Shown here piece after piece: positions 3,394 through 34,161 of a stretch of 64,000 nucleotides of DNA; position 1 is the stretch's first letter, and every line of letters begins with the position of its first letter. Position numbers and translations under genes: made by a program. The notes under the pieces are model-generated. The model was given only the letters and a program-made list of their open reading frames with translations. It was not told where the DNA came from and ran no database searches. The stretch is from Bacteroidota bacterium (lineage in GTDB: Bacteria; Bacteroidota; Bacteroidia; NORP154): contig JBDRNO010000094.1 of assembly GCA_043811005.1 (NCBI GenBank), positions 319-64,318 of the forward strand, given 5' to 3'.

Positions 3394-3547
3394 TATAATT
3401 AGTTTGAATATATTAATTCCTTTTTGGTTTTGCTTGCCCCGTTGCATAACGGGGGCTTGTCCAAGTTATGCAATTAAGCATTTTATTTTACAAAATTACA
3501 AAATAGTTGACTAATTTTGCACTCCGATTTTAAGTTTACATTTTATT

Positions 3548-6772: not shown

Positions 6773-6805
6773 AGATTTCCTAAATCCTGGAGATTTAGGA
6801 AATCT
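6773..6805 (-). terminator. Perfect 14-bp hairpin just downstream of the 6816-9656 gene
   Basis: agatttcctaaatc (6773-6786) / gatttaggaaatct (6792-6805) with a 5-nt loop. No clean T-run follows, so terminator function is uncertain. Confidence 0.4.
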
Positions 6806-12818: not shown

Positions 12819-13754
12819 ATGCAGGGAATTGTAACAAAATCAACAGGAAGCTGGTGTACAGTCAGGCAAGAGAATGATATTAAGACCAATTGTATAGTTA
12901 AGGGAATTTTGCGGATCAGTGGGATAAAATCAACCAATCCCGTTGCTGTTGGAGACAACGTTGTGTTTGATATTTTAAATGACGGAACAGGTCTTATCTC
13001 TGAAATTCTAGAGAGGAAAAACTACATTATCCGTAAAGCGACCAAGCTATCTAAAAGGTCACATATCATCGCTGCAAATATTGACCGGGCATTCTTAATG
13101 ATTACTTTGGTACAACCTCCTACCACAACATTATTTATTGACCGCTTCCTCGTAACCGCAGAAGCATATCATATTCCGGTTGATATTATTATTAATAAGA
13201 TTGAAATATATACCGGAGATATATTATCTGAAATGAAAAAATTAACAAGCATATACGAACAGATTGGATTTAAATGCCACAAAATTTCGGCTCTAAAAGA
13301 TCAAAATATCGGGGGTTTAAGGGATTTATTCAGAGATAAAATAAATTTATTGTCCGGCAACTCCGGTGTTGGTAAATCCACTTTGATAAACACCCTGGAC
13401 CCCAATCTGAATTTAAAGATCGGGAAAATCTCATCCTATCATAAAAAGGGAACCCATACTACAGCTTTTGCAGAAATGCTGGAATTGCATAGTGGCGGTT
13501 ATATTATTGATACACCTGGCATTAAAAGCTTTGGTGTAATTGATATTGAAAAAGAAGAATTATCACATTATTTTCCCGAGATGAGAAACCTGTTGCACTA
13601 CTGCCAGTACCATAATTGCTGTCACATTAATGAACCAAACTGCGCTGTTATCAAAGCATTGGAAAAAGGGGAAATAGCTAAATCAAGGTACAGGAATTAT
13701 ATTGATATTTATGACAGTGATGACGGTGAGGCGTATAGGCAGAAAGGGTATTAG
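12819..13754 (+). CDS. rsgA: Ribosome small-subunit-dependent GTPase A
   Basis: Circularly permuted GTPase motifs (NKIE, GNSGVGKSTLIN, DTPG) and a C-terminal zinc knuckle (CQYHNCCHINEPNCAV). Confidence 0.9.
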   Translation: MQGIVTKSTGSWCTVRQENDIKTNCIVKGILRISGIKSTNPVAVGDNVVFDILNDGTGLISEILERKNYIIRKATKLSKRSHIIAANIDRAFLMITLVQPPTTTLFIDRFLVTAEAYHIPVDIIINKIEIYTGDILSEMKKLTSIYEQIGFKCHKISALKDQNIGGLRDLFRDKINLLSGNSGVGKSTLINTLDPNLNLKIGKISSYHKKGTHTTAFAEMLELHSGGYIIDTPGIKSFGVIDIEKEELSHYFPEMRNLLHYCQYHNCCHINEPNCAVIKALEKGEIAKSRYRNYIDIYDSDDGEAYRQKGY

Positions 13755-13756
13755 TT

Positions 13757-13789
13757 ATGCGTGACACGGTTCCAAACCGTGGCTCGCAT
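13757..13789. repeat. Palindromic element copy 1 (rsgA-dtd junction)
   Basis: atgcgtgacacggtt-cca-aaccgtggctcgcat, with imperfect 15-bp arms. Confidence 0.65.
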
Positions 13790-13799
13790 AAGAAAAGCA

Positions 13800-14273
13800 A
13801 TGAAAACAGTAATACAACGAGTAAAACATGCTTCGGTTGAAATTTCAGATATGCGTGACACGGTTTTTAACCGTGCCACGCGCGAGATCAACCACGGCAT
13901 TCTGATCTTCCTCGGCATAGAAGATGCCGACACACAGGAAGATATCCAATGGCTTAGCGGAAAAATTTCCCGGCTCAGGATCTTTAACGATTCAAATGGA
14001 GTAATGAACCTCTCTGTCAAGGATGTTGACGGAGAAATATTGGTCATCAGCCAGTTCACCCTACATGCAAGCACCAAAAAAGGCAATCGCCCCTCATATA
14101 TTAAAGCCGCAAAACCAGATATAGCAATACCTCTCTATGAAGCATTCGTCAGGCAATTGGAAAATGATCTGGGCAAACCGGTACAAACCGGTGAGTTTGG
14201 CGCAATGATGGATATTTCATTAATTAATGACGGTCCTGTTACTATCATAATTGATACTAAAAATAAGGAGTAA
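13800..14273 (+). CDS. dtd: D-aminoacyl-tRNA deacylase with an in-frame hairpin insert
   Basis: MKTVIQRV..ASV, SQFTL and NDGPVT match Dtd. I start at the ATG at 13800, because the ORF-track start at 13761 only reads through repeat copy 1. Confidence 0.88.
   Translation: MKTVIQRVKHASVEISDMRDTVFNRATREINHGILIFLGIEDADTQEDIQWLSGKISRLRIFNDSNGVMNLSVKDVDGEILVISQFTLHASTKKGNRPSYIKAAKPDIAIPLYEAFVRQLENDLGKPVQTGEFGAMMDISLINDGPVTIIIDTKNKE
13851..13883. repeat. Palindromic element copy 2, in frame inside dtd
   Basis: atgcgtgacacggtt-ttt-aaccgtgccacgc forms a 13-bp stem with one mismatch. It encodes DMRDTVFNRATR. Confidence 0.7.
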
Positions 14274-14297
14274 TTTTATTTTATTATTTTTTATTTC

Positions 14298-14371
14298 TGT
14301 ATTGCAATACTAATAATTTTACTTATCTTTGTATTCCAATACTAATATTTCGGGAAATATTAGTATTGCAT
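14298..14371. promoter_or_regulatory. Triple repeat and perfect palindrome between a -7 box and the AAA ATPase gene
   Basis: TATTGCAATACTAATAAT (14300-14317) and TATTCCAATACTAATATT (14332-14349) are direct repeats. CAATACTAATATTTC-gg-GAAATATTAGTATTG (14337-14368) is a perfect 15-bp inverted repeat. The box TATCTTTG (14324-14331) fits TAnnTTTG. Confidence 0.5.
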
Positions 14372-14402
14372 TCCTATTATTTCTATCTTAAACCTATACG
14401 TT

Positions 14403-15638
14403 ATGTTGGATGACCTCTTTCTATTAAGTCAGAATTTTCTTGAAATTAATAACAGGAAATATGTGCGTTATTTTTTAAGATCCAATAGATTAAATAACCG
14501 TTTCTCAATAATTATAGGACAAAGAGGGATTGGAAAAACTACAATTATCATTCAATATATTCTTTCCAAATACAAACAGGACATATTTACAAACAAGGCA
14601 ATTTATGTTCAGGCAGATCATTTTATGGTCAGAAAATATTCACTATATGAGATTGCCGAAGTATTTAGCAATTATGGTGGTGAATTGATTTGCTTTGATG
14701 AAATACATAAATACCATGATTGGTCAATGGAACTTAAAAGTATTAATGACACATTCCCTGAATTAAAAATAATTGCTTCCGGCAGTTCTGCTATCGAAAT
14801 TAGTAAAGGAACCCATGATTTAAGCAGAAGGGCGATAGTATATAAATTAAATGGCGTTTCTTTCAGAGAGTTTGTTGAATTGTCGCAGAATCTGGAATTT
14901 ATGAATTATACTATTGAGGATATTGTTCAGTATCATCAGGATATATGTAATTCAATTATTCGAAAGCTCGATAAAAAAAACAAAAAGGTTTTACCATTAT
15001 TTAAAAAATATCTTCAATATGGGTATTATCCCTATTATTTGGAATATGGGGATAAAAAATTATTTTATCTCACACTTGAGCAAAATGTTCATACTGTGCT
15101 TGAAAGCGATCTTTTAACGATCTATCCTCATTTAACCGGCAATAGTGTAAAAAAAATAAAGAAATTACTCTCTGTAATTGCTTCATCTGTTCCTTTTACA
15201 CCTGATCTCCAACGCCTTAAAATAATGCTTGATATTGGAGATCAAAGAACCTTAAAGAATTATTTCAAATATCTGGAAGATGCAGGTATAATCGCTATAC
15301 TTAATAAGGGTGGAAAAGGATTAAAAGAACTTGAAAAACCCGATAAAATATACTTAAATAACACTAATTTAATGTATGCCCTACAAAACTTAAATAATGC
15401 TGAAACAGGTAATATAAGGGAAACTTTTTTTATTAATATGGCTGGTTCTAAACACAAAGTATCAACCCCTGAGAAAGGCGATTTTTTGGTTGATAATAAA
15501 TACATTTTTGAAGTTGGCGGCAGGAATAAAGATTTCAGGCAAATAAAGAATTTGAAAAATTCATATTTAGCGCTGGATGATATCGAGATTGGTATAGGAA
15601 ATAAAATACCATTGTGGCTATTTGGATTCTTATATTAA
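14403..15638 (+). CDS. AAA+ ATPase of the AAA_14/DUF4143 type
   Basis: Walker A GQRGIGKTT and Walker B-like LICFDEIH. The ~410-aa architecture is typical of DUF4143 ATP-binding proteins. Confidence 0.7.
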   Translation: MLDDLFLLSQNFLEINNRKYVRYFLRSNRLNNRFSIIIGQRGIGKTTIIIQYILSKYKQDIFTNKAIYVQADHFMVRKYSLYEIAEVFSNYGGELICFDEIHKYHDWSMELKSINDTFPELKIIASGSSAIEISKGTHDLSRRAIVYKLNGVSFREFVELSQNLEFMNYTIEDIVQYHQDICNSIIRKLDKKNKKVLPLFKKYLQYGYYPYYLEYGDKKLFYLTLEQNVHTVLESDLLTIYPHLTGNSVKKIKKLLSVIASSVPFTPDLQRLKIMLDIGDQRTLKNYFKYLEDAGIIAILNKGGKGLKELEKPDKIYLNNTNLMYALQNLNNAETGNIRETFFINMAGSKHKVSTPEKGDFLVDNKYIFEVGGRNKDFRQIKNLKNSYLALDDIEIGIGNKIPLWLFGFLY

Positions 15639-31661: not shown

Positions 31662-32468
31662 ATGGAACAATTAATAATAGCAGACAAAACATTCAACTCC
31701 CGTTTATTAACCGGAACAGGAAAATTCAGTTCCAACGAATTGATGGAAGAAGCATTGCTTGCATCCGGAACAGAGTTGGTAACCGTTGCTTTAAAACGTG
31801 TAAATCTTAACCTTCCTAAATTAAACCCTCAGGGCTTCAAAAACCCTGAGGGTTTGCATGATGATATTTTACAGCATTTAGACCATCCCCGGTTTAATTT
31901 GCTTCCTAATACTTCTGGTGTTAGAACCGCCAAAGAAGCTGTTTTTGCCGCTCAAATGGCTCGTGAGGCATTGGAAACCAATTGGTTGAAACTGGAAATT
32001 CATCCAGACCCGAAATATTTACTGCCCGACCCTATTGAAACATTAAAAGCGGCAGAAGAATTGGTAAAGCTGGGCTTCGTTGTTCTACCATACACTCATG
32101 CCGATCCTGTTCTATGTAAACGGCTGGAAGAAGCTGGTACGGCTGCGGTTATGCCATTAGGGTCTCCGATTGGCAGCAATAAAGGATTACAGATGAAAGA
32201 TATGCTGGAAATAATAATTGAGCAAAGTAATGTACCGGTAATAGTGGATGCAGGCATAGGCAGTCCTTCGGATGCGGCAAAGGCAATGGAAATGGGGGCG
32301 GATGCCGTTCTTGTTAATACAGCTATCGCTGTTTCTTCCAACCCGGCGAAAATGGCTATAGCATTTAAAATGGCTGTTGAAGCCGGTAGAATGGCTTATG
32401 AAGCGAAATTGGGGAGAACCTCTGTTAAAGCAGTAGCAACAAGCCCGTTGACTGCATTTTTGGATTAA
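31662..32468 (+). CDS. thiG: Thiazole synthase with an in-frame hairpin insert
   Basis: Collinear with E. coli ThiG as I recall it ([79 protein letters not shown]), except for about 13 extra residues. Confidence 0.95.
31823..31855. repeat. Perfect 12-bp-stem hairpin, in frame inside thiG
   Basis: AAACCCTCAGGG (31823-31834), loop cttcaaaaa, CCCTGAGGGTTT (31844-31855). It encodes [13 protein letters not shown]. Confidence 0.85.
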
Positions 32469-34047: not shown

Positions 34048-34056
34048 ATTGGTAAC

Positions 34057-34081
34057 AGAGACGCCCAATTTGGGCGTCTCT
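34057..34081. repeat. Perfect GC-rich hairpin agagacgccc-aattt-gggcgtctct
   Basis: 10-12 bp perfect stem within the thiH-thiF spacer. No T-run follows. Confidence 0.6.
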
Positions 34082-34161
34082 ACTTTACGAAAGGTCAGGA
34101 TGTCTGAAATTATTGATCCCAACAAATTTGTTGGAAATAAGTTCATTTTAAAGATTATAAC

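Follow-up and report, generated by a model that had tools for sequence, protein, structure and literature searches.

A REP-like palindromic element probably inserted twice at the rsgA–dtd locus of a Bacteroidota bacterium, once in frame within dtd

Two copies of a 33-nt imperfect palindrome lie at the junction of rsgA and dtd in the draft genome of a Bacteroidota bacterium, within the 64,000-nt stretch of DNA analysed here (C94:319-64318, hereafter the window; positions refer to it unless another contig is named). They are very probably copies of a repetitive extragenic palindromic (REP)-type hairpin element, termed family A, a non-autonomous element of the kind moved in trans by REP-associated tyrosine transposases (RAYTs); one copy is intergenic and the other sits in frame in dtd, the gene for D-aminoacyl-tRNA deacylase (Dtd). 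RAYTs (TnpA_REP) are HUH/Y1 proteins that act on single-stranded DNA hairpins. We identify the palindromes as REPs because copies are dispersed through the genome, the orthologous sites are empty, the core of the element flanks RAYT genes in seven genomes and the outer part of its stem covaries. The source assembly is a 4.6-Mb metagenome-assembled genome (MAG) of 310 contigs, with 37.8% G+C, a completeness of 83% and an estimated contamination of 1.4%.

The upstream gene, rsgA (12819–13754, plus strand), encodes ribosome small-subunit GTPase A (311 aa; Pfam RsgA_GTPase, E = 1.9e-51; RsgA_N, E = 2e-10) and is followed by an intact dtd encoding 157 aa (13800–14273, plus strand; Pfam Tyr_Deacylase, E = 2e-57). 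The 45-nt spacer between the two genes holds copy 1, ATGCGTGACACGGTTCCAAACCGTGGCTCGCAT (13757–13789; 15-nt arms, loop CCA), which begins 2 nt after the rsgA stop codon (13752–13754) and stops 10 nt short of the dtd start codon (ATG, 13800). Copy 2, ATGCGTGACACGGTTTTTAACCGTGCCACGCGC (13851–13883; loop TTT), lies 94 nt downstream of copy 1 and occupies codons 18–28 of dtd, translated as M18–R28 (MRDTVFNRATR) within ...ISDMRDTVFNRATREI.... An initial annotation of this DNA had placed two palindromic copies here, one 5' of dtd and one inside it, and both were recovered at these positions. Its placement and in-frame translation of copy 2 also stand, but the string it quoted has 31 nt and ends at 13881, whereas the 33-nt unit ends at 13883. 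Repeat detection describes the copies as a direct repeat of 35 nt at 83% identity and finds an inverted repeat within each (17-nt arms at 88%, 13-nt arms at 92%). When up to two mismatches are allowed, a 14-mer half-site has four matches in the window against 0.16 expected, a number reached by none of 100 shuffles. Copy 1 fits the genome-wide family with one mismatch; the 29-nt core of copy 2 is an exact family member, and its 3' outer dinucleotide is GC where the family has W-T.

The initial annotation had also called the copies tandem, a term that misleads. The 61 nt that separate them are conserved sequence native to dtd (the start codon and residues 1–17), which rules out tandem duplication as their origin. 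Because of this spacer, and because the copies also differ at three places (loop, unpaired stem position and 3' arm), they are two separate insertions and not a duplication. Copy 1 is an ordinary REP just 3' of rsgA. An in-frame GTG at 13761 opens a 170-aa open reading frame (ORF) that takes in copy 1 as an N-terminal extension. Because Dtd orthologues start at the position of ATG 13800, copy 1 is best read as intergenic; automatic annotation could call the dtd start at the upstream GTG, and such a call would be wrong.

A search for further copies, as the initial annotation had proposed, was productive, with 27–28 copies in the genome. Allowing up to two mismatches, we found 27 copies of family A (reversed-pattern control, 0), and a fuzzy search with GCGTGNCACGGTTNNNAACCGTGNCACGC gave 29 places, 28 of them convincing (0 for five scrambled 29-mers); the copies are spread over 20 contigs. 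Because flank statistics (n = 56) add two positions on each side (A in 52/56, then A/T in 51/56), the family A unit has 33 nt, A-W-GCGTG-N-CACGGTT-NNN-AACCGTG-N-CACGC-W-T, i.e., 11 codons, with 15-nt arms and a 3-nt loop. Beyond this unit, the same statistics show background composition and reveal neither a target motif nor a target duplication. Within the genome, variation is confined to the 3-nt loop and the stem positions N6/N6', the other 24 stem positions being ~2% diverged. N6/N6' are never Watson–Crick in this genome (0/24) and are paired in 90 of 126 copies of other genomes. The copies were probably made from templates in which an intact stem was needed and the loop and N6 were free to vary.

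The orientation of G/T-type copies relative to the host gene, counted by hand, is the same in five cases and opposite in six. Close pairs of copies lie 48, 66 or 94 nt apart. Three of these pairs are spaced at 48 nt start to start (33 nt plus a 15-nt spacer) and all are in frame (C129:4278/4326, C215:11032/11080 and C240:36578/36626); two occur in large repeat proteins that are paralogues of each other, and an oxidoreductase fusion of 1216 aa contains the third. The 48-nt pairs suggest a dimer form of the element. Two other classes of repeat were ruled out: a CRISPR array, as the copies are dispersed without regular spacing and the close pairs lie inside genes, and a miniature inverted-repeat transposable element (70–300 bp, with terminal inverted repeats and target-site duplication), as the unit has 33 nt and shows no duplication or conserved motif beyond it.

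The consequences for Dtd were traced through a homologue search of 5.8 billion proteins, of which the best 120 homologues were considered. Nearly all of these 120 have 150 aa, against 157 aa here, and among the listed homologues of similar length there is no close match to the Dtd of this genome. In an alignment with 13 homologues (71–79% identity), the sole length difference falls in the turn that joins strands two and three, where orthologues have five residues (e.g., GKLKA) and Dtd here has 12 (DMRDTVFNRATR). Eleven residues encoded by copy 2 are gained and four native residues lost, a net gain of seven with the frame kept, in agreement with the 7–8 extra residues that the initial annotation had estimated for the N-terminal hairpin. 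The same annotation had named, as the observation that would contradict it, the presence of these residues in orthologous proteins; the insert is absent from all Dtd orthologues examined. All invariant columns of the alignment are kept, including the catalytic motifs SQFTL and NDGPVT, and the Pfam Tyr_Deacylase match spans residues 2–152 against 144 profile positions. Structural modelling, likewise suggested at the outset, places the insert at the tip of a β-hairpin: in an AlphaFold2 model, residues 16–25 form a coil between strands 2–15 and 26–30. The per-residue confidence (pLDDT) falls below 50 at residues 20–24, in a model whose mean is 72.9 and which derives from a shallow alignment. Most likely, the insert is translated as a floppy loop of an otherwise intact Dtd.

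The dtd copy is one of many within genes. With gene status judged by long open frames, Pfam and orthologues, and without a gene caller, 22 of the 28 family A copies lie in frame in long ORFs. All 22 keep the frame and are stop-free, and they use all three frames (KRGTVxNRVTL, SVTRFxTVxRI and AWHGSKPCHA). The stems are stop-free in all six frames, and TAA, TAG or TGA loops are restricted to intergenic copies and to copies whose loop is out of frame. Hosts, confirmed by Pfam, include GlpK, IspD, MiaA, GpsA, GlpD, UvrA, a FAD-linked oxidase (GlcD-like), a neutral ceramidase and a spermidine-synthase-like protein.

For insert sizes, the regions were fetched and aligned with same-family orthologues at 45–75% identity, and at every site examined these orthologues are without the segment; the structures of E. 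coli GlpK and B. subtilis IspD also lack it. The net gain is +10 residues in GlpK (relative to eight relatives; an in-genome paralogue is also without the segment), +7 in GpsA, +10/11 in UvrA, +8 in IspD, +13 in the FAD-linked oxidase, +2 in the neutral ceramidase, where the change is a replacement, and +32 in MiaA, where it is a compound cluster. A constant insert size is ruled out by this range of +2 to +32 residues, and exactly four target codons were lost at at least two sites (dtd and gpsA). The intragenic segments are insertions, though not clean 33-nt additions. The compound insert of miaA (C100:8371-8484), 32 residues in all, is made up of one complete family A copy, the inverted junction-like mini-palindrome AACCGTGTCACGGTT and a tandem of two 21-nt units (AATCCGGTTCATGGCACGGCT, AATCCGGTTCATAATACGGTT). 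In uvrA (C266:23306-23440, minus strand), a second insert of ~27 residues (NHTPALPPAGGEGDPTLW...) lies beside family A, is missing from same-family orthologues and contains in its DNA the GC-rich palindrome CCGCCAGCTGGCGG.

The link to RAYTs comes from other genomes. A scan with the 25-nt core GTGNCACGGTTNNNAACCGTGNCAC, using one genome per species, yielded at least 117 loci, and the hosts among the matches listed are Niastella, Chitinophaga, Spirosoma, Telluribacter, Persicitalea, Saprospiraceae, Bacteroidales MAGs, Paludibacter and Rikenellaceae, with isolate genomes such as Niastella yeongjuensis DSM 17621 and Spirosoma arboris among them. A RAYT-like gene is present in seven of the 117 loci listed (seven genomes) and is in all seven immediately flanked by exact cores on both sides. 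The encoded protein of ~195 aa has the HUH motif LMPNHFHFLI and the Tyr motif YIHQNP and matches NCBIfam NF047646 'REP-associated tyrosine transposase' at profile positions 6–146 of 146 (E = 1e-15 to 3e-17); its sole PDB match, E. coli TnpA_REP (4ER8), aligns with it at both the HUH and the Tyr motif. The core-flanked protein thus has the features that characterise RAYTs, i.e., HUH, a YIxxNP Tyr motif and similarity to TnpA_REP. The Bacteroidetes TnpA_REP of subclass 2.6 (Bertels group 5) have the Tyr motif YIH[QN]NP and flanks with 'atypical secondary structures' (Quentin et al. 2018, PMC6006769). Family A is therefore a REP and most likely the cognate repeat of this RAYT group. At one locus, on a Paludibacter MAG contig (L028, 2330-6886), a 4.6-kb stretch contains four exact cores, of which two bracket the RAYT gene, and a fifth, diverged copy (up to three mismatches, at 3446) lies inside the RAYT gene itself.

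The similarity to these other genomes extends beyond the core. The four pairs outside it are Watson–Crick in 97, 94, 83 and 88% of 126 copies, versus 50, 46, 27 and 80% with shuffled flanks; the outer pairs use up to four pair types, and pairing is at background from pair 5. Because exactly four more pairs stay complementary while the sequence differs, we conclude that the other genomes carry the same 33-nt hairpin. The foot of the hairpin, A-W-GCGTG in this genome, differs from one genome to another. Family A has no match in the 40 nearest genomes and none in a 400-genome sample of the phylum, yet occurs in several orders, and this patchy distribution fits horizontal movement of REP–RAYT modules or repeated loss. 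No near relative turned up that either carries the dtd insert or is free of it. The core sequence was not found in the searchable literature, where only unrelated primer matches were returned.

Under the explanation favoured here, the family A copies would be the work of a cognate RAYT that has since been lost or is encoded in the 17% of the genome missing from the assembly. Insertion would proceed without target duplication, would need no target motif and would sometimes remove a few target codons. For a genic copy to survive, its net change would have to be a multiple of three, free of stops and located in a tolerant surface loop. At dtd, copy 2 would have swapped five residues at the β2–β3 hairpin tip for 12, and each of the two copies would add a stable mRNA hairpin (~−18 kcal/mol) near the dtd start.

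Family A has two hallmarks of REPs, a short imperfect palindrome of 20–40 bp and many dispersed copies in the genome, and is without two others, the GTAG or CGTC foot and a mainly extragenic location. Several observations weigh against its assignment as a RAYT-mobilised REP. By inspection, family A has no GTAG or CGTC foot, the tags of the two large REP super-families, and its prevalence inside genes is the opposite of 'extragenic'. No family-A-type RAYT was found in the assembly, itself 83% complete: the best tblastn matches, on C55, C134 and C186, are only 33–38% identical and are RAYT paralogues that adjoin palindromes of the sister families B and C, not A. Pfam Y1_Tnp has two matches in this genome (an IS200-type TnpA and a 151-aa Y1 protein), neither of the family-A type, and mobilisation of family A within this genome is something that we infer. 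In other genomes, the RAYT-like proteins score 58–63 bits on NF047646, where the curated cut-off is 80, and their match to Pfam Y1_Tnp is marginal. The net insert length varies, so that a clean 33-nt cut-and-paste fails for some sites. Finally, translation of the dtd insert is presumed from the intact reading frame.

Other explanations of the palindromes can be set against this evidence. It is improbable, in our view, that they are selected cis-regulatory RNA or DNA structures of the rsgA–dtd operon, serving rsgA as an mRNA 3'-end stabiliser or terminator or dtd as a translational attenuator, or insertions exapted for such a purpose. The position of copy 1, 2 nt past the rsgA stop and 10 nt short of the dtd ATG, would suit this role, as would the two predicted RNA hairpins of −18.3 kcal/mol each (z = −4.4 for copy 1 and −4.7 for copy 2, which starts 51 nt into the dtd coding sequence). 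In the predicted fold of a 146-nt stretch (−45.7 kcal/mol, z = −3.5), moreover, the two copies pair with each other and the start codon is enclosed, and REPs 3' of genes are reported to stabilise mRNA (PMC3733652). However, an operon-specific role cannot explain a 33-mer that sits in ~20 unrelated genes in all three frames. Copy 1 has no U-run after it, window positions 13000–15000 contain no Rfam match at E ≤ 1, and relatives manage without either copy. Copy 1 may nevertheless have been exapted for regulation, and the predicted pairing between copies 1 and 2 may lower or modulate dtd translation.

A perfect dyad with half-sites GTGNCACGGTT conserved across several orders, and within the genome far better conserved than the centre, is also what one would expect of a site for a dimeric DNA-binding protein (an operator, a partition or uptake signal, or a restriction/anti-restriction site) kept by selection. 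This origin seems very unlikely, given that most copies add foreign codons to conserved proteins whose orthologues have nothing there, and that the core flanks RAYT genes. Furthermore, the outer four pairs covary yet stay complementary, which fits a folded single strand and not a double-stranded recognition site. We see just as slim a chance that the dtd insert goes untranslated, with Dtd made without the loop by hairpin excision or a ribosomal hop, a scenario for which the very stable hairpin early in the coding sequence might speak. Preservation of the frame in 22/22 intragenic copies and the restriction of stop-triplet loops to out-of-frame or intergenic copies are, however, constraints expected only if the copies are read; removal of 33 nt would leave Dtd four residues shorter than every orthologue, and no take-off/landing codon pairs are present. 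That the repeats stem from faulty assembly or binning (e.g., chimeric palindromic reads or foreign contigs) is barely credible. The MAG is indeed fragmented (310 contigs) and incomplete, but the 28 copies lie in different unique contexts with frames intact, contigs with family A also carry other palindrome families of this genome, the core occurs in isolate genomes as well and contamination is low (1.4%). The RAYT-mobilised REP remains the preferred explanation.

Family A is accompanied by related elements. A survey of loop-3 palindromes in this genome revealed at least seven families, at least six of them besides A, with lengths of 29–41 nt. Family A has 24–28 copies in this count, B 38, C 53, D 21, E 17, F 20 and G 7; the palindromes of D and G start with the classical GTAG. 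Families B (CTTTTCCAAAGTT-NNN-AACTTTGGAAAAG) and C (ACCCTCAGGGTTT-NNN-AAACCCTGAGGGT) are both 33-nt sister palindromes. The 3-nt loop is hypervariable in every family from A to G (7–16 loops per family, two in the seven-copy G), and most stems are perfect.

The families differ in their relation to genes. The chance that a random 33-mer lies within an open frame of 150 aa or more is 83%. Of the family A copies, 21 of 24 are located in one (p = 0.79), the family's intragenic share amounting to 79–88%, whereas only 18–45% of the copies of families B–G lie in such frames (p = 0.017 for G, the smallest, and 1e-6 to 1e-12 for the others), a 2–4-fold depletion from genes in these six. Among families A–G in this genome, only family A is not depleted from coding DNA; in other genomes, most family A cores lie in short open frames. 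A more far-reaching idea, which we put forward as possible and on balance doubtful, is that family A is a REP lineage living inside genes, i.e., a near-neutral, stop-free 11-codon unit that is placed as if at random, whose copies are recent and whose insertion replaces a short target stretch. The copies would be recent because their stems are only ~2% diverged, and the four-codon losses at dtd and gpsA hint at a mechanism that replaces a short target stretch. If this were true, Bacteroidota proteins would regularly acquire new surface loops from a RAYT-driven hairpin, which would be a free-living counterpart, with an identifiable enzyme, of the phenomenon known from Rickettsia palindromic elements (RPEs).

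Sister palindromes were also observed within and beside the RAYT paralogues of this genome. The paralogues at C55:15476-16054 and C134:10921-11502 each have an in-frame family B 33-mer separating the HUH from the Tyr motif (RSAFPKFRTLEKL, ERAFQKSQTFGKL), and the gene on C55 is in addition flanked by family B copies. The third paralogue, on C186, is truncated and flanked by family C copies. Within the window, a family C copy (ACCCTCAGGGCTT-CAA-AAACCCTGAGGGT; 31825–31853) lies in frame in a ThiG-like protein (thiG, 31662–32468, plus strand). A family F copy (ATTTCCTAAATCC-TGG-AGATTTAGGAAAT; 6775–6803), just 3' of a 995-aa minus-strand ORF, and a GTAG-type family G copy (ACAGAGACGCCCA-ATT-TGGGCGTCTCTAC; 34055–34083) both appear intergenic.

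For genome annotation, GC-rich 33-mers within genes of this AT-rich lineage should be regarded as insertions and not as native sequence. The ~20 proteins with the same 11-residue loop constitute a natural set for the study of loop-insertion tolerance. With a core that flanks RAYT genes in several orders, family A also offers a concrete candidate substrate–enzyme pair for the poorly characterised RAYTs of Bacteroidota.

Among known systems, family A resembles REPtrons (PMC6006769) in that dispersed short hairpins flank a single small HUH/Y1 gene with YIHQNP and the HUH motif NHFH. It differs from them in the absence of a GTAG or GT[AG]G foot, in a fixed length of 33 nt with a 3-nt loop, in the location of 22/28 copies inside genes and in the lack of a cognate RAYT in the assembly. 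The repeats have no canonical foot and so match the 'atypical secondary structures' of subclass 2.6, a subclass assignment that is set by motifs alone. The sister palindromes in frame inside RAYT paralogues of this genome parallel the REPs in frame inside tnpA_REP genes of subclass 2.4 (Quentin et al. 2018, PMC6006769). In-frame intragenic REPs, with uvrA among the hosts and a likeness to RPEs, have been described by Di Nocera et al. 2013 (PMC3733652). Like those GTAG-/CGTC-tagged REPs, family A units lie wholly in ORFs, in frame, often paired or clustered, and have DNA-repair genes as hosts, uvrA here carrying family A plus a second palindrome. Unlike them, family A has neither tag, and intragenic copies, a minority there (PMC3733652), are the majority and undepleted here. 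The subterminal hairpins of IS200/IS605 TnpA offer a further parallel, as imperfect single-stranded DNA hairpins recognised by an HUH/Y1 enzyme, and the N6/N6' mismatch recalls their recognition irregularities; the family A unit, however, contains no transposase and lacks left and right ends, and its copies adjoin no conserved target tetranucleotide.

RPEs, reportedly described by Ogata et al. in 2000, are ~100–150 bp long and restricted to Rickettsia, and we know of no transposase for RPE-1. Family A resembles them as a palindromic selfish repeat that lies in frame in many housekeeping genes and is apparently translated as a surface segment with function kept. It differs in its 33-nt unit, its Bacteroidota host and its link to RAYTs, and unit length alone excludes membership among RPEs. 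An in-frame palindromic insert of a housekeeping enzyme can here be tied, with good probability, to an identifiable enzyme family, a link that the RPE case still lacks. Overall, intragenic REPs are already known and the event at dtd is an ordinary one of this kind, whereas the repeat family itself is undescribed and unusually common inside genes.

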